From positions 1-30,494 of the forward strand of contig JAKABL010000001.1 of assembly GCA_021801885.1 (NCBI GenBank): DNA of 30,494 bases, in the 5' to 3' direction. Position 1 is the stretch's first letter; every line of letters starts with the position of its first letter. Positions 1,273 to 28,828 of this stretch are shown in pieces. The notes beneath the pieces were generated by a model, which was not told where the DNA came from, made no database searches, and saw nothing but the letters and a program-made list of their open reading frames with translations. The DNA is from a bacterium (lineage in GTDB: Bacteria; Patescibacteriota; Minisyncoccia; UBA6257; 2-01-FULL-56-20). The translations under genes were made by a program, and so were the position numbers.

Positions 1273-2217
1273 CTATTCTCCCCGCAAACTGCGATAGGCC
1301 TCTTCCCGATCCTTCCCAAAAAGCATCGTATACGGATACGAGCTCTCCACCCTGGCGTGGCCCATCATGCTCGAAATGACGAAATTGTTTGCTTTCTTTT
1401 TCGCCAGATCGCGGCCGAACAGGTGCCGGAAGGAATGAGGATTGATGATAGGCAGTCCCGCTCTGTTCGAGTATTTGCGGAATAGTTCGGAAACATAACC
1501 GACCTGCAACCTTCTTCCCTTCGCGGAATAGTTCGACGCGCTCCCGCCCGCCTTGATTCCGAAGAACACCGCCTTCGGCTCGTCGAGCTCCATCGTCGTG
1601 AGAAATTTCTCGCGGGTCGCAACCCACTTCTTGAGCTGTTCGTTTGCCTCGCGCCCCCAGAAGATCTCCCGATATGGCAGCTCGCCGCGCGACTTTTCCG
1701 TCTTGATCCGCGCCGACTTCCTACCAAGATCGATGTCGTCCATGTCGAGCGCGACGATCTCGCCGTTGCGCGCCCCGGTGTCATGGATGAGCATGAGGAT
1801 CGCCTTGTCGCGGACCGCATACGTAATCTCGCCGCACTTCCCCTCGTCCTTCACCGCCGCCAGCAACCGTTCATACTGCTCTTCGGTTGCCACCCGTGGG
1901 AACTTGAACACTTTTCTTGGTATCGGGATGAGATCCGGATCGAAGCCCACTTGGATGCGGCGGCGGAACATGTGCTCGAAGAACAGTTTGAGCGCAATCG
2001 CTTTTTTGATCCGCGTGTTGTCGTCGTACCCGAGCGACTGCACGACCCCCAGCCAGCTTTCACATTCTTCGAGCGTGATCGATTCCACTTCCCGATCAAC
2101 GTCCCGCATGTAGAACATGAAGTCCGAGAGGTGCATGAAATCCTGCGTAACCGTCCGCGACTTCCTCGTCTGGTGCCGGGAATTCAGATACAGGTTTATT
2201 GCATCGTTGAGTTTCAT
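1273..2217 (-). CDS. Tyrosine recombinase/integrase (XerC/D-like)
   Basis: RDKAILMLIHDTGARNGE (catalytic R), KTEK, HSFRH (HxxR), MMGHA and terminal Y (SSYPYT). ATG at 2217 preferred over GTG at 2247, which lies inside the upstream terminator hairpin. Confidence 0.93.
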   Translation of the reverse strand: MKLNDAINLYLNSRHQTRKSRTVTQDFMHLSDFMFYMRDVDREVESITLEECESWLGVVQSLGYDDNTRIKKAIALKLFFEHMFRRRIQVGFDPDLIPIPRKVFKFPRVATEEQYERLLAAVKDEGKCGEITYAVRDKAILMLIHDTGARNGEIVALDMDDIDLGRKSARIKTEKSRGELPYREIFWGREANEQLKKWVATREKFLTTMELDEPKAVFFGIKAGGSASNYSAKGRRLQVGYVSELFRKYSNRAGLPIINPHSFRHLFGRDLAKKKANNFVISSMMGHARVESSYPYTMLFGKDREEAYRSLRGE

Positions 2218-2235
2218 ATTTAATTTATTTTTAAC

Positions 2236-2446
2236 GCAAAAGCCCACCGATACGACTCAGTGGGCCTTGCGCGGAGACAATCCTTGCAGATTGCTCCAGG
2301 GCGTCATTCTACTCGAAAAACGCCGAAAATACGAGACCCCATTGGTCGTATCGCGCCTTGCGGCAGATCCCTTTCGGGACAATGGGTTTTATGCTGTTTT
2401 ATCGACCTTGCCGGACTATACGGCGGTTCGTTTCCGCCGTCCAGTT
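2236..2446 (-). ncRNA. Putative structured cis-regulatory leader RNA/attenuator of the integrase
   Basis: Several hairpins with GNRA loops (tccc-GAAA-ggga, gcc-GCAA-ggc, caatct-GCAA-ggattg), ending in gcccactga-gtcgta-tcggtgggc-TTTT just upstream of the int ATG; 2345-2353 is complementary to 2248-2256. Confidence 0.55.
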
Positions 2447-2584
2447 ATGTCATAGCTAAATTGTTTTTGAGGTAGGTTTTGTCAGTACGATTGTGAGTTA
2501 TGAACACTTTGGCATTTGATTCGACCTTGACGGCGGGGTTTAAAATGAAGGCGTGCTCGCCTGTTTAAGACGCCCTTCATTTTA

Positions 2585-2860
2585 ATGGTGAACTCAACGA
2601 CAACATGCAGCTATGCGAACCCCCTCGTTCTTACGAAGGGCGCTTTAAACCCCGCTTCGGGAAACGACAGCGGGGCGTTCCAATTCGGCAGCTCAACGTG
2701 CACCACGCTTTACGCGCAAAGCACCTCCACCAATCCCAGTTATTATAATGGGTTCACCTACGGCGAAATAGTTATTTCTGTGCTTCTTCTGTTGATAACT
2801 GTCGCGACACTCTATAGCTTCTTCTGGTTTAGTGTGAAAGGTGTGAAAATCAGGCAGTGA
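2585..2860 (+). CDS. Small membrane protein (Ser/Thr-rich N-terminus, C-terminal TM helix, basic tail); possibly a minor virion-like protein
   Basis: 91 aa ending ...GFTYGEIVISVLLLLITVATLYSFFWFSVKGVKIRQ. Confidence 0.7.
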   Translation: MVNSTTTCSYANPLVLTKGALNPASGNDSGAFQFGSSTCTTLYAQSTSTNPSYYNGFTYGEIVISVLLLLITVATLYSFFWFSVKGVKIRQ

Positions 2861-2975
2861 TTTTTCATATTTGCTTTAGAAATAATTTATGTATAAAAGC
2901 GTATAATGTTATGCACATGGAGCAATATGGCAACCACGCGGCTTTATGTGTTAAAATAACTGTATTGCGAGGCGC

Positions 2976-3004
2976 TTGATTTTCGGGCATTCTGATGGTA
3001 CAAT
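2976..3004 (+). promoter_or_regulatory. sigma70 promoter of the antitoxin-fic operon
   Basis: TTGATT-N17-TACAAT with an extended -10 TG. Confidence 0.7.
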
Positions 3005-3031
3005 AAGGTCTCGATCATTGGCACTAAAAAT

Positions 3032-3256
3032 ATGAAAAAGCGCGTCATTCCAAATATTGAGAACCAACTGAAGAAATTGGTTGAGTTGCAGTTGGAAGTG
3101 GAAAAATTGCCGCCGCTCACTCCTGTCGAAAAGGCGAAGTTCGAACAGTCGCTTGCGATCGATCAGCTCTATTATTCGAGCAAGCTCGAAGGGAGCGAGC
3201 TCACGACCAAAATGATCGATAAAGCGATTCATGGCAAGAAGCTTTCGGCGGCCTAA
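3032..3256 (+). CDS. Fic antitoxin (alpha-inh motif)
   Basis: 74 aa containing SSKLEG, matching (S/T)xxxE(G/N); overlaps the fic start by 26 nt. Confidence 0.75.
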   Translation: MKKRVIPNIENQLKKLVELQLEVEKLPPLTPVEKAKFEQSLAIDQLYYSSKLEGSELTTKMIDKAIHGKKLSAA

Positions 3257-3887
3257 GGACGACGAAGAACTTCAGGAATTGGAAGCCGCCGGGCTATGGC
3301 GTGCTCAAGCGCTCGCGAAAGAGATCGGCGAGAGCAGCGAAAAGATAACCCTCGAAATCATCTTGCGTATTCACAAGGTGTTTTTCGAGCACGCCAACCC
3401 GGACATTGCGGGAAGATTTCGCCGTAGCGGCGAAGATATAAAGAAGCTGAAATACATCGAGCCACCGCTCGGAACCGGCGTGCAAATGCGAATGTACGAG
3501 TTCTGGCGCGACTTCGACACTCGCCTTTCGCAAGTGCCACAACTTCCCAAGACCGCAGGCAAACGGGCATCCCAACATGCACTCGCAAAGCGTAATGATG
3601 CCGTGATAACCCTCGGAGCGTGGACGCAACACCAGATCGCCGCAATCCATCCGTTTTGCGAGGGCAACGGCCGTATGGCCCGCCTCCTTACCAACCTTAT
3701 TTTGTATCGCTTCAAGCTTCAGCCCACGGATATAAAATACCAAGGCGAAAACCGCGTCGCCTATCTCGAAGCACTTGGCGCGATCGATCAGCACGACGAT
3801 TATCGCCATCTGAAGCAATTAATCATTAAAGGGATGATGAGCTCGTATCGGCGTCTTGCGGAGACAAGAAAGCGAATGGCGAAATAG
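3231..3887 (+). CDS. Fic-domain protein (AMP-transferase toxin)
   Basis: Canonical motif HPFCEGNGRMAR; 218 aa. Confidence 0.92.
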   Translation: MARSFRRPKDDEELQELEAAGLWRAQALAKEIGESSEKITLEIILRIHKVFFEHANPDIAGRFRRSGEDIKKLKYIEPPLGTGVQMRMYEFWRDFDTRLSQVPQLPKTAGKRASQHALAKRNDAVITLGAWTQHQIAAIHPFCEGNGRMARLLTNLILYRFKLQPTDIKYQGENRVAYLEALGAIDQHDDYRHLKQLIIKGMMSSYRRLAETRKRMAK

Positions 3888-3951: not shown

Positions 3952-5018
<1,067 letters not shown>

Positions 5019-5205
5019 GGATGGAAATGCGAACGACACCCTTGGCTCTGCGGGAGGGCGCATTCCGCGCGATCCCGCAGAGGAACGGATGATATTTTCC
5101 CTTTCGGGAAGGAAGAGGGGCAGTAGCCGTCTTGGCGCAGACATGCGCGCGATGCGCGCAGGGATCCGTGAATCCCCTGTTCGGGCCAATGCATTCGATG
5201 ATGAA
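5019..5205 (-). ncRNA. Structured spacer between TR and RT (3' part of DGR RNA)
   Basis: Stems 5046-5055/5073-5082 (10 bp perfect), 5097-5110 (GAAA loop on the sense strand) and 5144-5160. Confidence 0.6.
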
Positions 5206-5320
5206 TACTGGGCACAGCGGAATCCGATGTTGTTGTTCGTGTTGCCGGGAGTATTGTTCAGGTTGAGTGTCTCCACCCCCGCATTCGCGCCATTGTTCCA
5301 ATTGCCGCCGCGGATGAAAC
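5206..5320 (-). repeat. DGR template repeat (TR)
   Basis: 115-bp copy of 5804-5918 with 13 mismatches, all at TR adenines on the sense strand; rich in AAC/AAT codons; lies between avd and RT. Confidence 0.97.
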
Positions 5321-5380
5321 TCCACTGTGGTGCACCCCTGTCCCTGCCCGGCGATGCCGGGCATCTTCCATTCTACCGCA

Positions 5381-5731
5381 TCACGCCGCGTTCGGCTGGG
5401 GAAATCGCGCCATCCATCCCGCGAGCATCCGGCCGATCTCGTTCATGCGCTCCGCCGCGAAGCCGTATTGCCGCACACTCATGAACCGGAGGTCTTTCGC
5501 GAGGCGGACAAGCATGCGGAGTTCGTCGAGATCCGCGCTCGCGGCGGCGAGTAGGGTATGTTTCTCCCGCGCGGCGTTCGCGACGATGAACGCGTGGATG
5601 AGGTCGATGGTCTTATTCTCAATGCGCTGGCCGAGCACGAACCGCTGGCTCTTGGGGAATTTGTTCACGACGGGATGCAACCACAGCATGAAGTCGTAGG
5701 TCTTTTGGTAGATGGCAAGGTCGTCCAGCAT
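5381..5731 (-). CDS. avd: DGR accessory variability determinant (Avd-like four-helix bundle)
   Basis: 116 aa, LAIYQKTYDFMLWL...KFPKSQRFVLGQRIEN...LDELRMLVRLAKDL...EIGRMLAGW; sits directly upstream of TR. Confidence 0.92.
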   Translation of the reverse strand: MLDDLAIYQKTYDFMLWLHPVVNKFPKSQRFVLGQRIENKTIDLIHAFIVANAAREKHTLLAAASADLDELRMLVRLAKDLRFMSVRQYGFAAERMNEIGRMLAGWMARFPQPNAA

Positions 5732-5802
5732 GGCGGAAGGAGGCAGAGGCAGAAAGAAAAAATGCGAAGATAGATTGCAGATTTCAGATGGCTACGCGGC
5801 GG

Positions 5803-7326
5803 CTACCGGGCACAGCGGAATCCGACGCTGTTGTTCGTGCCGCCGGGAGTAAGGCTCAGGTTGAGTGTCTCCACCCCCGCATTCGCGCCATTGCCCCAAC
5901 CGCCGCCGCGGAGGAAACCATAGACGGTGGTATTGCCCGAGGTGCCGTCGGAATATATTTCGCCCATGCCTTGTGTAGAGCTCCATGCGTTGTTGAGAGG
6001 CCCCGCGGTCTGCTGAGTCATCGTGCCCCAGTTCGTGATCGCGGTATATTGGCGCCAGGTGAAGCCCGGGCTGCCGCCATACGGCTCGTTCTGTCCCTGG
6101 ATCGTGTCGCTCGTCCACTGCCAGAGGTTGCCCGCCATGTCCCAGACGATGCTGCCGTTCGAGAGCGTGAGGGTGCGGATCTGGGAATTCGCCGATCCCG
6201 TGCCGCCGCAGGAGGAAGGGCCGTCGGTGCCCACGCAGTTCTGGGAATCGCTTGTGGAAGGGAGGCTTGCGTTTGCGGGAATGTTGTCGTTGTGTCCCGA
6301 ATACACATAGTTCGTACCCACCGTGCCGCCGTACCAGTTTGATCCCTGCCCCTCCGCGTTCCAGGCGATGGTCTGCCACTCCGCGTTCGTCATGAGATGG
6401 GCGCCGATCGAAGCGCAGTAGCTCGCGGCCTGGGTCTGGGACACGTCCACGATGGGATAGCCGGTGGCGATCGAGGCGGGGGCATAGCCGTTCGCTTGGG
6501 AACAGTTGTTCGTATTCACACCCGCGCCCCCATTGTTGTAACCGTTCACGGCGGTGCCATCCAAAGGAGAGGTGAGGCCCACACCCGTCGTGCGGTTCAC
6601 GCATGACGCGTCGTACTTCATCACCATGAAATTGCCGGTACCGAAGGTGCTGTTGCCGGGGACGGGCACCCAGGCGCCCGTGAGGTTGGCGGCGGAGCCG
6701 ACCGTGAAGGCGAGAGGATTCTGCACGAGCATCGCCTGATATTTCTGGGATTCGGGGACGGCCGTGACGCGGAAGGTGGTGCCGAAGGATTCGTAGGTGT
6801 AGTAAAAGTTGCTTGAGGTGGAATTCACGGGATCGACGGGGAGGGAGCCGAAGGGGCTTCCAGCGCTAATGCTATTGAAATTGATCGGCAGCCAGCCGGT
6901 GGTCGAAGCGTTGCGATAGGTGCTTGATGCGGCGCAGTGGAAAGATCCGCCTGCGAGGAAATTGCCGCTCATAAGGGAGCAGTCCGTGCCTGCGGTCGAG
7001 GTGGCATTCGGATCGGGAATGGAAACGTAGGTGACGGATGAGGTGCCGAGGGAGAAATTGGAAGCGCCCCCTTGGTCAGTGGTATACAAATTGATCGCCG
7101 AGTTCAGGGTGGCAAGGTCGGAGAGGCGGTTCGCATCCCTCGATTGGGCGAGAAGCTGGGCGGGATTGAGGGTCAAGACGACGACCACCGCCAAAATGGC
7201 GATGATCGCGATCACGACGAGAAGCTCGATGAGGGTGAAGCCCTTATCGAGCATGGCCGCAGGTGGAATTACTCTCTCTCTCTCTCTCTCGGAGCGATTA
7301 TTCCGAACAAAAGCTGGGTTGCCCAT
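5803..7326 (-). CDS. DGR target: type IV pilin-like N-terminus fused to a C-terminal C-type-lectin (FGE-sulfatase-like) variable domain; alternative start at 7254
   Basis: Class III signal KG|FTLIELLVVIAIIAIL...; CLec/FGE motifs HLMTNAEWQ, WDMAGNLWQWT and RGGGW...GFRC; VR at the C-terminus. Confidence 0.9.
   Translation of the reverse strand: MGNPAFVRNNRSERERERVIPPAAMLDKGFTLIELLVVIAIIAILAVVVVLTLNPAQLLAQSRDANRLSDLATLNSAINLYTTDQGGASNFSLGTSSVTYVSIPDPNATSTAGTDCSLMSGNFLAGGSFHCAASSTYRNASTTGWLPINFNSISAGSPFGSLPVDPVNSTSSNFYYTYESFGTTFRVTAVPESQKYQAMLVQNPLAFTVGSAANLTGAWVPVPGNSTFGTGNFMVMKYDASCVNRTTGVGLTSPLDGTAVNGYNNGGAGVNTNNCSQANGYAPASIATGYPIVDVSQTQAASYCASIGAHLMTNAEWQTIAWNAEGQGSNWYGGTVGTNYVYSGHNDNIPANASLPSTSDSQNCVGTDGPSSCGGTGSANSQIRTLTLSNGSIVWDMAGNLWQWTSDTIQGQNEPYGGSPGFTWRQYTAITNWGTMTQQTAGPLNNAWSSTQGMGEIYSDGTSGNTTVYGFLRGGGWGNGANAGVETLNLSLTPGGTNNSVGFRCAR
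5804..5918 (-). repeat. DGR variable repeat (VR) at the 3' end of the target gene
   Basis: Encodes FLRGGGWGNGANAGVETLNLSLTPGGTNNSVGFRCAR, differing from TR only at adenine positions. Confidence 0.97.
7272..7290. repeat. (GA)9G microsatellite in the leader of the DGR target gene
   Basis: ctctctctctctctctctc at 7272-7290, between ATG 7326 and the pilin cleavage site; currently in frame. Confidence 0.95.
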
Positions 7327-11394: not shown

Positions 11395-11584
11395 TGTGCA
11401 TAACTGCCGCCACAAAACTTGTCCACACTTTGGCAGTGGAAATAAAAAGCGAAAGGGGCAAATATATCATTAAGCGAAACAAGGAAATGAAGCGGAAACC
11501 CAAGAAAAAACACGGAGGGGGCAAATCTTAATTAATTAAGAAATTAATTAATATATTTGCCCCTATGCACTGCAAGGGTATAAT
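11395..11584. promoter_or_regulatory. Divergent control region with repeated operator-like boxes and the HEPN gene promoter
   Basis: 14-bp inverted repeat 11454-11467/11551-11564; GGGGCAAAT three times; palindrome CTTAATTAATTAAG at 11527-11540; TTGCCC-N16-TATAAT at 11557-11584; DnaA-box-like 9-mers at 11395-11403 and 11419-11427. Confidence 0.6.
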
Positions 11585-14431: not shown

Positions 14432-17400
14432 TTAGCTGCCCGCCATGGCGGCTTCCTCTTCTTCCTCCTCCATTTCGGCCTCGTGGAGAATGGCGTCAGA
14501 GACGATCTCTTGCTTTCCCGCAGGAATAAGGCGCCCAATAATGACGTTTTCCTTGAGGCCGCGGAGCTTGTCGATCTTACCTTCAATGGCGGCCTTCACG
14601 AGCACGCGCGACGTGTCCTGGAAGGATGCCGCCGAAAGGAACGATTCCGCGGAAAGGGCGATGCGGGTGATGCCGAGGAGCGTCTCCTCTGATTTCGCAG
14701 GCTTGCCGCCCTGCTTCTTGATCTCGCGGTTCACTTCGAGGAAGCGGGACTTTTCCACGACCTCGCCCATCACGAAATCAGGAGCATCACCGCCGTCCGT
14801 GATCTTCACGCGGGAGAACATCTGGCGCACGATCATTTCGATGTGCTTGTTGTTGATGGACGCGCCTTCCGACGCATAGATCTTCTGCACTTCGTTCACG
14901 ATATAGCGGCTCGCTTCCTTCATGCCCCTGTGGGCATAGAGCTCATGGATATCGAGATTGCCTTCCGAAAGGCGATCGCCTTTCTTCACCGTGTCGCCCG
15001 CCTGCACAAAGAGGACCGTGCCGCGCGGAACGCTGACATCCGTCGCTTTGCCCTTCTTCGTCTCGGGAATGAAGCGGACCACCTTGAGCGTGCCGCGCTC
15101 TTCGATCTTGTCCACCGTGCCGTCGAACGGCGCGAGGATGGCGCGCCCTTTCGGCGCGCGGGTCTCGAAGATTTCTTCCACGCGCGGCAGACCGTGGGTG
15201 ATGTCGGCGCCGGCAACGCCTCCCTGGTGGAACGTACGCATGGTGAGCTGGGTGCCCGGCTCGCCGATGGATTGCGCGGCGAGTACGCCGACGGCGGTAC
15301 CGAGGGCGGCCGGCTTATTGCTCGAAAGGTCGTACCCGTAACATTTCATGCAGATCCCATAGAAGGTCTTGCAGGTGATCGGCGAACGAACGACGACATG
15401 ATCGATCTTTTCGGCCGCTTCGATCGCCTCCGCGGTCTCCTGGTCGATGGTCTCGCCCGCATGCACGAGGATCTTGTTGCCCACTTTCACGTCATCGAGT
15501 GCCGTGCGCGAGAAAAGGCGGGATGCAAAGCTCTGATTGAACTCCTTGCCGTCGGCACGCGCGATCTCGATGCCTTCCTTCGTATGGCAGTCCTCTTCGC
15601 GGATGGTAAGGTCCTGGGCCACATCGACGAGACGGCGAGTGAGATATCCTGCCTGCGCGGTCTTGAGCGCGGTGTCAGTGGTACCTTTGCGCGCCGCGTG
15701 GGTCATAATGAAATACTCGAGAATGGAAAGCCCTTCCTTGAACGAAGACTTGATCGGAAGTTCGATCGTTTCGCCCTTCGGATTCTGCACGAGACCCTTC
15801 ATACCCATCATCTGGATCGGCTGGGACCAGGATCCGCGGGAGCCTGAATTGACGATCTGATAGATCGGGTTGTCTTCGGGGAAGATGTCCGCGATGAGCT
15901 TCGCAAGGTCGTTCTTCACCTTCTCCCATACGCTGATCACGCGGCTGCGGCGCTCGACCGGCGTAAGAAGGCCTTCGTCGTATTGCTGATGGATGAGCGC
16001 GACCTCGTTGTCCGCCTTTTCGATCATGTCTTTCTTCTGCGTCGGCACGAGGAGGTCCGCCATGGCCCAGGTGATACCGGAGATGGTCGCCGTATCGTAG
16101 CCCAGACTCTTCACGCGATCAATGACATCCCGCGCGGCATCCATGCCCTTCACGGCAAACACACGACCAAGGAGCGCATTGAGCTTCTTCTTGGTGACGA
16201 GCTCGTTCACATAGGGAATGGTCCCGTTGAGCGCCTTATTGAAGATGAGGCGACCGGCCGTGGTGGGTTCGTCCATACCGAGAACCTTGATCGGCGTATG
16301 AAGCTTGATATGGCCGAAATGATACGCGAGCATGACCTCGTCGTAATCCGCGAAATGCTTGACGTCGGCGTTCTCCGGAAGCGTGTCCATCCGGGTGATG
16401 TAGTAGCTGCCGAGCGCGATGTCGTTCCACGGGCCCGGTACGAGGTCTCCCGTCGCAGGCTTCAAAAGGTTCTTGCCTGCGGACATGATCTCGCGCGCCT
16501 CCTCCTGGGCTGCCACGGAAAGCGGGAGGTGGACGGCCATCTGGTCGCCGTCGAAGTCCGCGTTGAACGCAGCGCACACGAGCGGCGGAAGCTTGATGGC
16601 AAGGCCTTCGACGAGCTGCGGACGGAACGCCTGCACCGAAAGGCGGTGGAGCGTCGGCGCGCGGTTCAGAAGCACGTACTTGTCCTTGATGATCTCTTCG
16701 AGCACGGCGAGGACTTCCGGCGTGTGCTCTTCCATGAAGCGGGATGCGGAGCGCATGTTGTGCGCCATGCCGCGCTTGATGATCTCGCTGATGACGAAAG
16801 GACGGAAGAGCTCGAGGCCCATGCGCTTCGGAATACCCATCTCGTCGATCTTGAGCTTCGGACCGACCACGATGACCGAGCGGCCGGAATAGTCCACGCG
16901 CTTGCCGAGGAGGTTCTGGCGGAAGCGTCCCTGTTTGCCCTTCAACATGTCGGCAAGCGAACGGAGCGGACGGCGCTGTGCGGACATCTGCTGCGTGCCG
17001 AACCGCGCAGAGTTGTCGATGAGCGCGTCAACGGCCTCCTGGAGCATGCGCTTTTCGTTGCGCACGATGACATCCGGGGCTTTGATCTCGAGAAGCTTCT
17101 TCAGGCGGTTGTTGCGGTTGATGACGCGGCGATAGAGATCGTTGAGATCGGAGGTTGCGAAGCGGCCTCCGTCGAGGGCCACCATCGGACGAAGGTCCGG
17201 AGGAAGCACCGGGAGCACGTTCATGACCATCCATTCGGGACGCTGCCCATTGCGCACCATCGCCTTGAACATCTTGAGGCGGCGAAGAAGCTTCGACTGC
17301 GCCATGGGATCGCGCGCGCCTTCGAGCTCTTTCTCGATCGCGGCGACCTCTTTCTTGAGGTCCATCTTCTGGAGGATCGACTGCACCGCCTCTGCGCCGC

Positions 17401-20400
17401 TCGATGCCTTGAAGATATTGCCGAACTTGCGCGACAGCGTGAAGTATTCGTTCTCACTGAGGATCTGACCGATGCGGAGCTTCTCAAGGTAGTCCTTCGT
17501 GGTGTCCGCGGCTTCCATGATCTCCCCTTTCACTTCCTTGTCCTTGTTGCCGACGGTCTTCAGCTTGCCCTTGAGCTCGCGCTCGAGTTCTTCGAGGGCC
17601 GCCTTGCGGTTCTCCTCTTTTATGTCCGTGATGATGTACGCGGAATAGTAGATCACGCGCTCAAGCTTCTGCGCCGACACGTCGAGCGCGAGCGAAAGGC
17701 GCGAAGGAATGGACTTAAGGAACCAGATATGCGACACCGGCGTCGCGAGCGCGATATGGCCGATGCGTTCGCGGCGGACGGCCGCGCGCGTCACTTCGAC
17801 GCCGCACTTGTCGCACACCACGCCCTTATAGCGGATGCGGCGATACTTGCCACAGTAGCATTCATAATCCTTCGTGGGACCGAAGATCCGCTCGCTGAAG
17901 AGGCCATCCTTCTCCGGACGCTGCGTGCGGTAGTTGATGGTCTCCGGTTTGGTGACCTCGCCGTGCGACCACCGGAGGATATCCTCGGGCGACGCCACGC
18001 TGATCTTGAGCGCGGAGAAATTGTCCTTGCGATCGGTCTCCGACTCATAGAGCGGCTGGATGTTGAACGCAAGCGACTTCAATTCATTGACGAGCACGTT
18101 GAACGATGCGGGGACGTTCGGTTCTTTGATCTGCTCGCCGCGGATGATCGATTCGTAGGCCGCCGCGCGTCCGACGACGTCGTCGGATTTGATCGTGAGC
18201 ATTTCCTGGAGCGTATGGCGCGCGCCATATCCCTCGAGGGCCCACACCTCCATTTCGCCGAAGCGCTGTCCGCCGAACTGCGCCTTACCGCCGAGCGGCT
18301 GCTGGGTGATCAAAGAGTAGGGACCGATCGAACGCATGTGCGCCTTGTCCTCCACGAGGTGGTTGAGCTTGAGCATGTAGATCTGTCCCACCATCACGCG
18401 GTTCTGGAAAGGCTCTCCCGTGCGTCCGTCGAAGAGCGTTGCCTTGGCATCCTCCGGAAGGCCTGCCCTCTTGAGTTCCGTGCGGATGTCCGCTTCGGTG
18501 GCCGAATCGAGACCCGGAGTGATCGCGCGATAACCGAGCTTGGAGGCTGCCCACCCGAGATGGGTCTCGAGGATCTGTCCGAGGTTCATGCGGGATACGA
18601 CACCGAGCGGATTCAGGATGATGTCCACCGGCGTGCCATCTTCGAGGTACGGCATGTCTTCCACGGCGCGGACCTGCGAAATGACACCCTTGTTGCCGTG
18701 ACGGCCGGCGAGCTTGTCGCCTGCCTGCACCTTGCGGAGCTCCGCGATCTCCACCTGGATACGGCGGATGATGCCCGGTTCGAGCTTGTCGCCGCGCTCG
18801 CGGTCGAAGATCTTCACGTTGACGACGCGCCCCACCTTGCCGTGCGGGAGCGTGAGCGACGTGTCCTTCACGTCGCGCGCCTTCTCGCCGAAAATAGCGC
18901 GGAGGAGACGTTCTTCGGAGGTAAGCTCCGACTCGCCCTTCGGGGAGATCTTGCCGACGAGGATATCCCCCGCCTTCACTTCCGCACCGATGCGCACAAT
19001 ACCCTCCTCGTCGAGGTTCTTGAGCTTATCCTCGGAGACGTTCGGAATATCATAGGTCGTCACCTCGGGACCGAGCTTCGTGTCGCGCACATCGCAGGAA
19101 TATTCATCGATATGGATCGAGGTGAAGCGGTCCTCCTGGACCACGCGCTCGGAAATGATGATGGCGTCCTCATAGTTCGCACCTTCCCACGATACGAACG
19201 CCACAAGGAGATTCTGCCCGAGCGCAAGGACGCCGTTCTCGATCGAGGGGCCGTCCGCGAGGATCTGCCCCTTCTTCACTTTCTCGCCCCGCACCACGAG
19301 CGGCTTCTGTGAGATACAGGTGAACTGGTTGGAGCGCTTGAACTTCTCGAGCGTATAGGTCTTGGTCGCCTTCTCGTACTTCACCTTGATATGGCTGCCG
19401 TCGGCCTCCATCACCTCACCGGGGCCCTCCGCAAGGATCACGTAGCCCGAATCGAGGGCCACCTTCTCCTCCTGACCGGTCGAAACGTACGGCGCATCGG
19501 GATTCACGGACACCACGGCCTGGCGTTGCATGTTCGAACCCATGAGGGCGCGGTTCGCGTCATCGTGCTGGAGGAATGGAATGAGCGACGTAGCCACGGA
19601 AATGAACTCGTTCGCGGCGATATCAATGAAATCGATGTCTTCCGGCGCGCACGTGCCCGGCTCGCCCTTGATGCGGGTCTCGAGCGCGGTGCCGATGAGC
19701 GCACCCTTTTCATCCCGAGGACTGCCCGCATGGGTGATCTTATATTTCTCCTCTTCCGAAGCGTCCATCCAGACGATCTCGTCGGTCACGGCGCCGTTCT
19801 TCACGCGCGCATAGGGCGCCTCGAGGAACCCGAAGTCATTGATGCGGGTGTAACTTGCAAGATAGTTGATAAGTCCCACGTTCGAACCTTCCGGCGTCTG
19901 AATCGGGCAGATGCGTCCGTAATGGGAGCGATGCACGTCGCGCACCTCGAAGGACGCGCGTTCACGCGTGAGACCGCCGGGACCGAGCGCGGAAATGCGG
20001 CGCTTGTGTTCAAGCTCCGCGAGCGGGTTCACCTGGTCCATGAACTGGGACAGCTGGGATGACGCGAAGAACTCCTTGATGACCGCCGCGATAGGGCGGA
20101 AATTGACGAGCTGCGCGGGCTGGAGCGAATCCTTGTCCTCCGTCGACATGCGGTCCTGAATGATGCGGCGCAAGCGCGCAAGGCCGATGCGAAGCCGGCC
20201 CTGGAGCAGTTCGCCCACCGCCTTGAGGCGGCGATTGCCGAGATGGTCGATGTCGTCCTGTTCGGCTTCCGGATCGTTGTTGAGGCGGATGATCTCCTTC
20301 ACGATCGCAATGAGGTCTTCCTTCTCGAGAAGCTTCGTGCTGCGCTTCCGGTCGAGGTCGAGACGCTGATTCATCTTGTAGCGGCCCACATCGGAAAGAT

Positions 20401-21187
20401 CGTAGCGATCGGCGCGTTCGAACATCGCCGCAATAAGGTTGCGCGCGGTCTCCGCGTTCGCGGGATCGCCCGGACGGAGGCGGCGGTAGATCTCGACGTA
20501 CGATTCATCGGCATCCTTCGCGACATCCTTCTTAAGGGTCGCATCGATGTATTTGATGAGGCCGGTATCCGCGCCTTCGAAGGCCTTCTTGATGTCGTCG
20601 GTCGTCATGCCGAAGATGCGCAAAAGGTCCGTCACCGGAACCTTCCGATGGCGGTCGATCTTCACGCCGATATCGCCGTTCGCATCGGTCTCGAACTCGA
20701 GCCATGCGCCGCGGTTCGGGATGATCTTCGCGCCGAAAAGCTGATGGCCGCGATACGGCACTGCGGTAAAGTACACGCCCGGTGAACGGACGAGCTGCGA
20801 AACAACGACGCGCTCCACGCCGTTGATGATGAACGTACCCCGCGCGGTCATGATCGGGAAATCCCCGAAATACACTTCCTGCTTCTGTTCCCTCCCCGTG
20901 CGGTTGTTCACGAGGCGCAATGTGCAACGAAGCGGGGCCTCGTAGGTGGCTTCCTTATAGCGCGCGGTCACTTCGTCATACTTCGGCTCGTCAAAACGAT
21001 AGTCCGAAAAATAAAGCGCAAATTCCTTCCCCGTATGGTCAAGGATCGGAGAAATCTCCTCGAGGAGCTCATTGAGGCCTTTTTTGAGGAACCATTCATA
21101 GGACTTCAGCTGCGCCTCGTTGAGATTGAGGGGCGAAATGAGGGGTTTTGATTTTGAGAAGTCCTTTGTGGAAGTGAATTTTGCCAT
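14432..21187 (-). CDS. rpoBC: Fused DNA-directed RNA polymerase beta/beta' subunit
   Basis: Single 2251-aa ORF with RpoB motifs (SQFMDQ...[38 protein letters not shown]) continuing into RpoC ([32 protein letters not shown]). Confidence 0.97.
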   Translation of the reverse strand: [2251 protein letters not shown]

Positions 21188-24977: not shown

Positions 24978-25403
24978 AAAGCCGTTTCTTGGCTTGTGAA
25001 GAAGATTTTTATGTTCCTCGGGGACGGCATAAAATTCTTCTGAATTTTTGCCGAGGCACTCGGCGCCTTCGCGCCTCCGTGACTCCCCTCGGAGCACAAA
25101 AATCTTCTTCACAAATCCAAAACGTTCTTTCTGATTGTAGAAAGCTGTTTCTTTCTGCTTCGGAGGGAATGTCGGAGCCGCGCGCCGCCCAAGAGGCGGC
25201 TACGCAACCCGAGACCGAGAGCGGCCGGTCAGCAGACCGGAACGCCGTCCCTACAAAGCAGAAAGAAACAGCTAATGCAAGTCAGCATTGGGATGGTTGG
25301 CGGGGTTATTAGTACGCCTCGGCTAAAGTCCTTGCGAACCTTACACCTAGCGCCTATCAACGTGGTAGTCTTCCACGAAACCACGCATACCTAATCTTGG
25401 GGT

Positions 25404-25437
<34 letters not shown>

Positions 25438-25555
25438 CTTCCATACATAGCTACCCGGCAATTCAGCTGGTGCCAAAGCCGGTAGACCAGAGGTATGTTC
25501 AGCCCAGTCCTCTCGTACTAAGGCCAACTCCCCTCAAGTATGAACGCCTGCAGCA

Positions 25556-25596
<41 letters not shown>

Positions 25597-26960
25597 ACGT
25601 GCCACTTTAATTGGCGAACAGCCAAACGCTTGGGAGCTTCTCCACCCCCGCGCTGTGGCGAGCCGACATCGAGGTGCCGAGCATTGTCGTCGCTAGGGAC
25701 GCTCGGACAATACTAGCCTGTTATCCCCGGAGTAGCTTTTATCCGGTGTCTCCGGCCTTCCTATAAAGAAGCCGTCGGGTCACTAACTTCTGCTTTCGCA
25801 CCTGCTCGACTTGTAGGTCTCGCAGTCAAGCCGGCTTTTGCGTTTGCACGTCCTGCCCGATTTCCATCCGGGCTAAGCCGACCTTAATAAACTCCTCCGT
25901 TACTCTTTTGGAGGAAAACGCCCCATTTAAACTGCCTACCAAGCACTGTCTCAATTGGGTTTCCTTTCGGTCCCCAACCGGTTAGACGTCAAAATTGTAA
26001 AGATGGCTGTTTCATTGACGGATCCACGCGAACCGAAATCCGCGCTTCAAATCCTCACCACTACGCTACGCAGTACAACTCTGAAATCAATACCAAGCTG
26101 CAGTAAAGCTTCCGGGGTCTTTTCGTCCCGCTGCAGGTATCCCGCATCTTCACGGGAATTGCATTTTCACCGAGCTCATCGTTGAGACAGTTCTCCGGTC
26201 GTTACGCCTTTCGTGCGCTTCGGAACTTACCCGAAAAGGAATTGCGCTACCTTAGAACGATTATAGTTATCGCTGACATTGACGAGGGCTTGACTCAGTG
26301 AGCAAACGCATTGCTGCGCCACCCCCAAGCTTGACCTTCTCGCATCGGTCAGGCGTCACCCCCTATACATCCTGTTGCCAGTTAGCAGGGAGCTGTGTTT
26401 TTGGTAAACAGTCGCCAGAGAGACTTTCGCTGCGGCCCCGCCGATATTGCTATCGAAAGGGCAGGCCTTATCGCTAACTTACGGCCGCTATTTTGCCTAG
26501 TTCCTTAACGATGACTCACTCGTTCCCCTTGGGCTACTCGCCCTATACACCAGTGTCGGTTTCCGGTACGGAGACCACGCGCTCGATTTAGCGGATTTTT
26601 CTCGGAGGGCTCTTCACATCCGTCGACCAGGTAAGTTCCTGACCTTCCGTCGGTGGCCGCATGAACTTGCCACAAACGATGCCAAACCAATAAGACACGG
26701 ATGCTTATTTCCCTCGTCCTCCGGTTATGATCGCGCGGTCGGGCTGGAATATTAACCAGCTTCCCATCGACTGCCCCTTTCGGGATTGCCTTAGGACCGC
26801 CTAACCCGTGGATGATTGCCAGTGCCACGGAAACCTTGTATTTTCGGGGTTCCAATTTCTCATTGGGATTGTGGTTACTCATTCCAACATTCTCTCTTCC
26901 GGCCGCTCCAATCGCCCTCGCGGATCGATCTTCACTGCAGGCCGAAATGCTCTCCTACCA

Positions 26961-27159
26961 TTCACTGACTTCATTGAGGAGGCGAATGCATTGCACTCGC
27001 CAAAAGATATTCCTGTGAACCGAAAGGTCCGCGGATAAAAGTGGTGAAGCGGGCTGGGATTGAACCAGCGACCTTCGCATAGTTTTGCGACGCTCTCCCC
27101 ACTGAGCTACCGCCTCACGCACGTTCGAGGAAATGATTCTCCTCAATGAAGTCAGCGAA
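26961..27159 (-). other. Intervening sequence in 23S helix 45
   Basis: ~200 nt replacing the short H45 hairpin; closed by a perfect 17-bp stem 26965-26981/27139-27155. Confidence 0.88.
27042..27116 (-). ncRNA. tRNA-like element inside the 23S IVS (G3:U70, A73, CCA; 6-nt non-canonical anticodon loop)
   Basis: GAGGCGG TA GCTC AGTGGGGA GAGC G TCGCA AAACTA TGCGA AGGTC GCTGG TTCAATC CCAGC CCGCTTC A CCA folds into a full cloverleaf. Confidence 0.85.
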
Positions 27160-27865
27160 TCCGTAGCTTCGGTACCATGCTTAGCCCCGGTACATTTTCG
27201 GCGCCGCCACCCGTCGAATAGTGAGTTGTTACACACTCTTTAAAGGATGGCTACCTCTAAGCCAACCTCCTATCTGTCTATGGGTGAGGACTGCCTTTTA
27301 CACTTAGCATGGATTTAGGGACCTTAGATGACGGTCTGGGCTCTTCCCCTCGCGACCATGGAGCTTAGCCCCCACAGTCTAACTAGTGGAATATGGGCCT
27401 GCGGTATTCGGAGTTTGATTGGTCTGCCGGAGTTTCCCCCTGTACAGACCATCCAGTGCTCTACCCCCACAGGGAACTTCCACCGCTAGTCCTAAAACTA
27501 TTTCGGAGAGAACCAGCTATTACGTTATTCGATTAGCTTTTCACTCCTTACCTCAGCTCATCCGAAGATTTTGAACAATCAACCGGTTCGGGCCTTCCCC
27601 CGCCTTTCGGCGGCGTTCACCCTGGCCAAGGCAAGCTCATAACGCTTCGGGTCTATCTTGTACTGCATAATGGGCGCCCTATTAAGACTCGCTTTCGCTG
27701 TGCCTTCGCGCTATTCGCGCTTAGACTGCAATACAAGATAAGTCGTTGGATCATTCTTCAATAGGCACATTGTCGCTCCGCGAAGACCCGAAGGCCTTCA
27801 CTTAGAGCTTCAATTCCTTGTAGACAAATGGTTTCAGGTTCTATTTCATCGGCCTCACCGGCCTG

Positions 27866-27902
<37 letters not shown>

Positions 27903-28828
27903 ATCTAGAAAAGTATTTAGCCTTACCTGATAGTACAGGCAAATTCACTCGAGACTGTTTTACCTCGAGCTACTCAAGTTAAAAAACTAAGGAGATCATC
28001 GGCTTTCGCCTACGGGGCTATCACCCTCTCTGGCGCCGCTTTCCAGACGGCTCCGGCTAGCTGACGATTTTTTTACTCCTCCACCGATCAGCAAATAACG
28101 CAACGCACGTACGCATCGCCCGAAGGCGGGCGCAGACGCGCTACGTTACTTGCTAAAAGAGCGTTCTTTTCTTATTACCCTAAGGTCGATCGTAAGATCA
28201 GAACCTTAGTTTGGGCTTTTCCCTGTTCTCTCGCCGATACTAAGGGAATAACTGATTTGTTCTTTTTTCCTCCGCTTACTGGAATGTTTTACTTCAGCGG
28301 GTACGCGATCGGCTTGCGCCGAACCATTGAGGTTTGCTCAATGAGGTTCCCCCATTCGGACATCCCCGGATCACAGGTTGCTACGCACCTCCCCGAGGCA
28401 TTTCGTTGCTACGCCACGTCCTTCATCGCCTTTTCTAGTCTAGGCATCCACCATTCGCCCTTAATGCCAACCATCCCAATGCTGACTTGCTCACGCCGCA
28501 CATCCGTAAAGAGATGCGGCGATCGCCATCATCATGTGATGATGTGTGACTCTGACTTGCCATGAGAAATTGCGCGCGGATGCATAACCACGCGGACCGG
28601 AAGTTCCTTACTTCCGATCTAATAAATGGCACAGAGTCTCCTTATTATTCCTCCGGCTCTACAATCCGGAAGTCCGCCAAAACCGACGGATAGATTGAAA
28701 AATGCACCGACGCGCTGTCCTTTCAAAAAAATCAGCCGCACTCGGCGGCCGTTCGCTGCGTCAAAAACGCGGCTTCAGCCGGAGTGTTTTGAAAGGTTGA
28801 TCTTGATAACCATATCGCGTCCTGAGTA

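Follow-up and report, generated by a model that had tools for sequence, protein, structure and literature searches.

A candidate two-state attenuator in the leader RNA of a Parcubacteria tyrosine integrase gene

The integrase locus and its surroundings

The window analysed here, that is, the whole stretch of 30,494 nucleotides, belongs to a genome of 652 kb that is 97% complete and whose close relatives are labelled Candidatus Parcubacteria. On its minus strand, a structured leader is followed by the gene int (1273-2217, ATG at 2217-2215) and then by gatB. The int product is a tyrosine recombinase of 314 amino acids that matches Phage_integrase in Pfam (1.5e-24) and an integrase in PHROGs. The residues R..K..HxxR..H..Y are kept in our alignment A6, and neither Pfam nor this alignment revealed any extra domain.

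The block 1098-2858, comprising int, the leader and a small open reading frame, lies beside gatB in three other genomes of the same genus as well. The DNA between this block and the conserved genes that begin at about 7384 varies from genome to genome, and because of such variable cargo beyond a conserved block the locus is an integrated element. The integrase is an accessory gene: of 125 genomes of the family 8 carry its clade, and of 400 sampled across the phylum none does. A housekeeping Xer role was rejected on account of this sporadic occurrence. The source genome carries one other recombinase only, which is 24% identical to int. Since 19 IMG/VR viral contigs carry the integrase clade and an Amidase_2 endolysin gene is located just upstream in one subfamily, at least some members of the family probably originate from phages or prophages.

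Targeting of tRNA genes by the element was also rejected, as the integrases of 58 loci have no tRNA gene beside them, save one unrelated tRNA-Gln. Searching the two island ends for direct repeats that could be att cores yielded nothing convincing. About 170 nt 3' of int (1098-1272) are kept together with the module, and homology ends just past ...GAGAACTATGGGGATCAC (~1118-1101), which is likely to represent the element end or an att core. A partial second copy of this putative end, ATGGGGA-CGGTGGAAT, is found at ~1012-1032. Promoter, leader and int are bracketed by GCTATGACAT (2457-2448) and its inverted copy ATGTCATAGC (1268-1255), a pair that may serve as protein-binding sites. The best-conserved intergenic part upstream of the int promoter contains the 16-mer ACACTTTGGCATTTGA (2504-2519), which recurs with 2 mismatches at 11425-11440 near the far end of the island; these copies may be arm-type or regulator sites marking both ends of the element.

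Divergent from int, a conserved ORF of 91 amino acids is encoded on the plus strand (2585-2860), and period-3 substitutions among its homologues show it to be real. It has no match in Pfam or PHROGs, and towards its C-terminus it resembles a prepilin cleavage motif followed by a transmembrane helix (G-FTYGE-IVISVLLLLI...). Between the two loci of genome G017 this ORF is 75% identical, while their integrases share only 36%. A long A-tract/GC/U-tract hairpin (~2540-2583) ends 2 nt before its ATG. Beyond the ORF follow a Fic gene, a complete diversity-generating retroelement (DGR) and a C5 methylase gene. The DGR (3952-7326, minus strand) comprises a target protein with a prepilin N-terminus and an FGE-sulfatase/C-type-lectin-like C-terminus (5803-7326), the variable repeat VR (5804-5918), Avd (5381-5731), the template repeat TR (5206-5320), which is 89% identical to VR, and the reverse transcriptase (RT). 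A long (AG)n tract (~4583-4626, coding strand) marks the exact point at which the RT reading frame breaks into ORFs 4560-5276 and 3952-4635, a split that could reflect slipped-strand phase variation or an assembly error. A link of the leader to the neighbouring DGR was rejected, as some loci with homologous leaders lack a DGR and the cargo differs between genomes.

Further along the window, the minus strand holds a very long ORF of 2251 amino acids (14432-21187), unusual for a genome of 650 kb. The 23S rRNA gene (25291-28474) measures 3184 nt against a model of 2925 positions, and an insertion in it contains a sequence resembling a tRNA (27042-27116, minus strand), which carries CCA at its 3' end, has an undetermined anticodon and is called by both the Rfam tRNA model (54.9 bits) and ARAGORN.

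Probable promoter, leader architecture and covariation

The outermost element of the upstream region, P1 (2446-2411, minus strand), consists of CTGGAC and GTCCGG around GGCGG-N7-CCGCC and was read in the preliminary description as a helix of the RNA. A consensus scan places a sigma70-like promoter, TGGACG-17-TATAGT, at the same site (2443-2415), with the -35 element TGGACG at 2443-2438 and the -10 element TATAGT at 2420-2415; the inverted repeat GGCGG-N7-CCGCC (2438-2422) sits in the 17-nt spacer. The P1 hexamers align one to one with the canonical TTGACA-17-TACAAT of a paralogous locus (G017b), and a hairpin is absent from the position equivalent to P1 in the G017 paralogous locus. Sigma70-like promoters are present in every subfamily, with the -10 element 28-45 nt upstream of P2 and the junction. 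In subfamily C the promoter reads TTGACG-16-TGTAATAAT and again has an inverted repeat inside the spacer; in subfamily B the repeat lies around the -10 element. The P1 stems are invariant in 16 subfamily-A sequences, in which the loop alone varies. Instead of an RNA helix, P1 is most likely a promoter with a possible operator-like inverted repeat, acting at the DNA level and not forming part of the RNA.

A second promoter/inverted-repeat box (TGGACGGCGGAAACaAACCGCCGTATgGT) is located at L014 12760-12805 (G017, minus strand), before the C5 cytosine methylase gene of the same island, with the hexamers and the inner repeat kept and the outer stem lost. This suggests that int and the methylase may be under common control. 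Downstream of P1, the motif AAGGUCG (2403-2409, minus strand) marks the predicted transcript start and is followed by an A/U-rich, unstructured 5' leader that extends to 2387. AAGGTCG occurs upstream of start codons of this genome 19 times, against 7.7 expected, at -60 to -20 from the start codon in 17 of the 19 cases. Its enrichment lies 25-60 nt before the starts, often 3-8 nt past a TAnnnT hexamer; here it lies 5 nt past TATAGT. The pattern suggests that AAGGTCG is a conserved element at transcript 5' ends, and a start of the int transcript near 2409 is predicted.

The A/U-rich leader runs into a three-way junction (2338-2386, minus strand) whose helices P2, P2a and P2b covary across 31 leaders. 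P2 pairs CCCAUUG (2386-2380) with CAAUGGG (2344-2338) and has changes on both sides in 6 of its 7 pairs. Within it lie P2a (UCCC-GAAA-GGGA, 2379-2368; 3 of 4 pairs doubly changed), the linker UC (2367-2366) and P2b ((U)GCC-GCAA-GGC(G), 2365-2354 with its core at 2364-2355; 3 of 3 pairs doubly changed). The single junction strand J, CGAUACGAC (2353-2345), then leads directly into the 3' strand of P2. Farther downstream, minimum free energy (MFE) folding alone predicts a middle hairpin, GGCGU...ACGCC (2300-2324, minus strand). In G003, G002 and G017a its sequence has changed with no clear compensation, and this weakly supported hairpin is not kept even in close relatives. P3 (GGAG-CAAUCU-GCAA-GGAUUG-U-CUCC, 2273-2297, minus strand) is specific to subfamily A, where it survives through G-U and compensatory changes; L033 has a wholly different hairpin that is still GCAA-capped. 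The terminal hairpin P4 (2235-2271, minus strand) closes the leader. A sequence check found all leader elements listed in the preliminary description on the minus strand at the expected positions.

All subfamilies share one order of elements: an A/U-rich 5' leader, P2, P2a, UC, P2b, J, the P2 3' strand, a variable middle and P4. Across them P2 has 6-7 bp, P2a has the form (U)CCC-GNRA-GGG(A) followed by the UC linker, P2b is a hairpin of variable length that is mostly GNRA-capped, J measures 8-10 nt and the variable middle 60-130 nt. The sequence of P2a and the linker is highly conserved, and together with the junction it suggests a possible binding site for a ligand or a protein.

A covariance model, R1, was built from four leaders. 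Among genomes of the same genus the leader region is 75-87% identical and more tightly conserved than the flanking coding sequence. Strong R1 matches were found only before close integrase homologues, and weak ones immediately upstream of integrases that are 35-43% identical. An integrase-based scan retrieved 80 metagenome loci, about 45 of which have an R1 match on the sense strand that ends at the start codon; R1 also matches at least 6 IMG/VR viral contigs and genome G030. Leaders of this family lie directly upstream of integrase genes of a single tyrosine-integrase clade, whose members are 35-97% identical and come from Parcubacteria genomes, from metagenomes and from IMG/VR viral contigs. 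Roughly 13 of 65 clade members have no recognisable leader. R1 found no leader away from such an integrase, its sole exception being a weak match in G125 (L021) that we rejected as a false positive, as it consists of a terminator only, without junction or integrase.

In the alignment of 31 sequences (A7), 96.1% of cells form standard pairs, compared with 84.5% after shuffling and 34-46% after sliding. Changes on both sides were found in 23 of 29 pairs; homologues upstream of related integrases thus show the covariation by which the preliminary description had proposed to judge the leader. The window's leader is also more stable than expected, with an MFE of -90.1 kcal/mol against -68.1 +/- 4.2 for dinucleotide shuffles (z = -5.2; 0 of 200 shuffles). 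The structured leader proposed upstream of the integrase is borne out as a conserved, covarying family. Rfam 15 gave no match to it at the gathering threshold in a search of the whole window, and chance-level matches only at E <= 10 in 1900-3300, in agreement with the earlier remark that it was not recognised as a known riboswitch class.

The opposite strand is also well folded (z = -4.1), and the assignment of the strand therefore rests on dominant G-U pairs and on the fixed orientation to int. The same observation, along with the probably DNA-level inverted repeat of P1, favours the idea of hairpins working at the level of single-stranded DNA, as a replication origin, packaging signal or recombination site of a filamentous-phage-like element. 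Against it, the leaders keep one position and orientation with respect to promoter and int start codon even where the integrases are 35% identical, the GNRA loops are conserved, and some pairs are dominantly G-U (for example U-G in 21 of 31 leaders), which would be C-A mismatches on the other strand. Pfam and PHROGs yielded no homologues of Rep, Zot or coat proteins in the island. We regard a function in single-stranded DNA as highly improbable. Integron attI/attC sites or other single-stranded DNA recombination hairpins were rejected on the strand-specific G-U pairs, the linkage to promoter and start codon, and the score of int in the integron-integrase model, which at 27 is far below the 265-bit cutoff.

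The terminal hairpin and the competing helix

The P4 core consists of 9 bp, GCCCACUGA (2265-2257) with UCGGUGGGC (2250-2242), around the 6-nt loop L4, GUCGUA (2256-2251). It is 99.5% paired in the 31-leader alignment, with 6 of 7 pairs doubly changed. Directly 3' of the core follows the U-run UUUU (2241-2238), which together with the next bases, GCG (2241-2235 in total), pairs with CGCAAG (2271-2266) to form a lower extension. This arrangement is general: in 52 leaders the A-rich 5' flank pairs with the U-run and the next 2-4 nt, giving P4 a median total length of 16 bp. A U-run of at least 3 follows the core in 49 of these 52 leaders and one of at least 4 in 33; it is short or broken in L058, L094 and L107. 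In the window the run reads UUUUGCGUU, and a simple terminator scan did not report P4. With 9 bp and a 6-nt loop, P4 lies within the range for intrinsic terminator stems (5-14 bp, GC-rich, with a 3-8-nt loop). Canonical GC-stem/U-run hairpins are present elsewhere in these loci, and P4 therefore looks like an intrinsic-terminator-like hairpin.

The distance from the base of P4 to the AUG has a median of 6 nt in the family and is 14-20 nt in the subfamily of the window, where an A/U-rich spacer without a Shine-Dalgarno sequence lies between the two (2218-2234, minus strand). The genome shows no Shine-Dalgarno enrichment, with GGAG or GAGG before 9% of 322 well-defined starts versus 13% in the background; the regions before these starts are A/U-rich instead. 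Translation should therefore depend on structure at the start codon as well.

The short distance bears as well on whether P4 ends a free-standing small RNA of about 170 nt that acts in trans, as an immunity or antisense RNA or as a recombinase cofactor or guide, with read-through into int being secondary. Its own promoter, its terminator-like 3' end and its place 5' in a recombinase gene, where IS110 bridge RNAs also lie, would fit such an RNA. In about half of the family, however, P4 ends 1-5 nt before the AUG, too close for int to have a promoter of its own; covariation links the variable single strands with one another inside the RNA, and with no identified DNA site; no match was noticed between the RNA loops and the putative element end (...GAGAACTATGGGRAT...), which was identified only for subfamily A; and the integrase lacks an extra domain. 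We consider a trans-acting role quite improbable. An 8-mer 3' of int, GAUGCGAC (~1085), was tried as a trans partner of the P4 loop and discarded as a chance match, being located outside the conserved module and absent from the homologues.

The junction strand J (2353-2345) is the exact complement of GUCGUAUCG (2256-2248), which covers the loop of P4. This complementarity, pointed out in the preliminary description, is real and covaries: although left out of the model behind A7, the J:L4 pairing is 98.9% paired in the 31 leaders, with 4 of 6 pairs compensatory. It occurs in 28 distinct sequence versions, and a perfect complement of at least 8 nt between the P4 loop region and the upstream sequence is found in 46 of 65 unique leaders, against 2.4% of shuffled upstream sequences. 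The pairing overlaps only the top 2-3 pairs of P4 (GA:UC).

Beyond J, the complementarity continues. The segment X, composed of the P2 3' strand and a tail of about 10 nt (2327-2344, minus strand), resembles the 3' half of P4 in sequence and is complementary to Y, the A-rich extension and 5' strand of P4 (2278-2257, minus strand). J and X can thereby pair with Y and the loop in one interrupted helix of about 25 bp. In the window the X:Y duplex amounts to -11.9 kcal/mol and the combined J+X:Y+L4 helix to -25.7 kcal/mol; in the window's subfamily the part past J:L4 is weaker and contains a single mismatch and a single bulge. Cognate X:Y pairs have a mean of -12.0 kcal/mol, versus -8.4 for non-cognate pairs and -6.8 for shuffled X (0 of 5000 permutations; the significance is overstated, as the 24 representatives, though more than 25% different, are mutually related). 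The tail and the extension alone keep the cognate effect (68 of 3000 permutations), and a slid control of the same 24 representatives showed none. On A7, an alignment fitted to the P2+P4 structure and not to this helix, the X:Y columns are 87.7% paired versus 27-40% when slid, and compensatory changes occur in the part formed by the P2 3' and P4 5' strands. The displaced strands, P2 5' and P4 3', are cognate-complementary too.

The alternative helix excludes both P2 and P4. In folding simulations of nascent transcripts that end just past the loop, 45 of 52 leaders form the alternative helix. At full length the MFE structure is the alternative fold in 28 leaders (23 with the P2+P4 fold; 52 in all) with a median difference of 3 kcal/mol, energies that ignore a possible pseudoknot bonus for the P2+P4 fold. 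For the window, the alternative fold is the MFE structure up to 2242, and the P2+P4 fold from 2233 onward, once the U-run and GCG are added. The folding models thus predict mutually exclusive terminator and antiterminator folds, as in an expression platform. Because a conserved, cognate alternative helix excludes the terminator, the terminator/antiterminator logic suggested in the preliminary description is the best reading. Its geometry needs revision: the antiterminating strand runs into the 5' strand of P4 and makes use of the P2 3' strand, and it takes 2-3 nt of the P4 3' strand at most.

A different reading of the same pairing is a static pseudoknotted leader without any switch, in which J docks on the P4 loop, P2 and P4 both persist, and the structure keeps int translation low or stabilises the mRNA. 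Such a fold would be sterically feasible, as J:L4 overlaps only the top 2-3 P4 pairs and is joined by a 2-nt linker at one end while stacking continuously at the other; P4 adjoins the AUG in most members, and the full-length MFE of the window is the P2+P4 fold. It leaves unexplained why the tail after P2 tracks the 5' extension of P4 subfamily by subfamily, and why the folds are near-isoenergetic across the family. We regard a permanently docked leader as rather unlikely. The view of J:loop as a purely tertiary pseudoknot compatible with P4 was dropped on finding the cognate-specific X:Y helix. In a switching leader, too, J could sterically dock on the loop and form a pseudoknot while the junction is closed.

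A complex fold with a junction and long-range pairing directly upstream of a mobile-element ORF could also be a self-cleaving or processing ribozyme, or an RNase P or RNase III substrate by which the 5' end of the int mRNA is trimmed, and we infer that P2 and J:L4 could stack like the acceptor and T arms of a tRNA. Rfam ribozymes do not match even at E <= 10, however, an invariant unpaired core typical of ribozymes was not recognised, and a switch explains the two-state complementarity better; processing of this kind seems scarcely probable.

Proposed mechanism and relation to known systems

We posit, with a probability of roughly 65%, that the leader (2409-2218, minus strand, about 190 nt) is a bistable attenuator of the integrase mRNA and represents an uncatalogued RNA family. 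As the 5' leader of the int mRNA, it would belong to an integrated mobile element or prophage. In state T (off), P2 would close the three-way junction with its two GNRA-capped arms, and the long P4 would form, with its GC core and with the U-run paired to the upstream A-rich strand, as an intrinsic-terminator-like hairpin. With the base of P4 1-6 nt from the AUG in most relatives, transcription would end or the start site would be buried. In state A (on), J, the P2 3' strand and about 10 further nt would pair with the P4 loop, the P4 5' strand and the A-rich extension. P2 and P4 would both be broken, and the freed U-run and start region would permit read-through and translation.

The nascent transcript is predicted to reach state A first. 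Whatever stabilises the closed junction, whether a small ligand, a protein of phage or host, or a slow pace of transcription, would shift the leader to state T, and kinetics alone could set the balance. The comparisons establish the RNA family with its helices, the J:loop pairing, the alternative helix and the similar energies of the two folds. We infer the transcript ends, termination at P4, which state is the on state, and the existence and nature of an effector. Gating of integration or excision would follow from the identity of the downstream gene.

The P2/P2a/P2b junction is an aptamer-like, covarying fold in a 5' UTR, as is generally expected of a riboswitch. The three-way junction might accordingly be the aptamer of a new riboswitch class that couples a host metabolite or second messenger to integrase expression of a CPR element. 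We consider this a tentative and on the whole unlikely extension of the attenuator, of which the integrase is the only associated gene and gives no clue to a metabolite.

The proposed attenuator resembles the expression platforms of purine, SAM-I and c-di-GMP riboswitches, in which the 3' strand of the closing helix and the sequence next to it pair with the 5' strand of a downstream GC-hairpin/U-run. Two near-isoenergetic folds, between which folding order is expected to decide, are a further shared feature. Unlike these platforms, the present leader has no Rfam match and controls a mobile-element integrase, not a metabolic gene or transporter. Its antiterminator moreover adds the pairing of a junction strand with the terminator loop and spans the whole 5' half and loop of the terminator.

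Pairing of a sensor-domain strand with the loop of a regulatory hairpin over expression signals is also seen in the kissing loop (L5-L13) of cobalamin riboswitches. In E. coli, rpsO/S15 has a pseudoknot translational operator next to the start codon. The T4 gene 32 leader, cited in PMC10690425, is likewise a pseudoknot translational operator next to the start codon. Our leader is like the gene 32 and rpsO/S15 operators in that a possible pseudoknot adjoins the start codon. It differs from the cobalamin kissing loop and the pseudoknot operators in that the pairing continues into a helix which destroys the regulatory hairpin, and it has no homology to them.

The IS110/IS1111 bridge (seek) RNAs are comparable as structured non-coding RNAs in the 5' region of a mobile-element recombinase gene. 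Their recombinases are of the DEDD/serine type and their RNA reads target and donor DNA with two internal loops, whereas the present gene encodes a Phage_integrase tyrosine recombinase and the variable strands pair within the RNA. In the literature searched, no description of the leader RNA was found. What appears to be new is the leader family, its association with tyrosine integrases, and an antiterminator that incorporates pairing between a junction strand and the terminator loop; a leader attenuator with riboswitch-like architecture is of an already known kind.

For a temperate element, integration, persistence or departure depends on how the expression of its integrase is controlled. To our knowledge, almost nothing is known about the regulation of phages and islands in the ultra-small CPR/Patescibacteria. 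The leader adds a complex RNA family whose two-state design is clear and can be tested. Should there be an effector, the leader would be one of the rare instances in which sensing by an RNA is coupled to a recombinase. Without an effector, it would still offer a well-defined model of attenuation in organisms that apparently do not use Shine-Dalgarno sequences.
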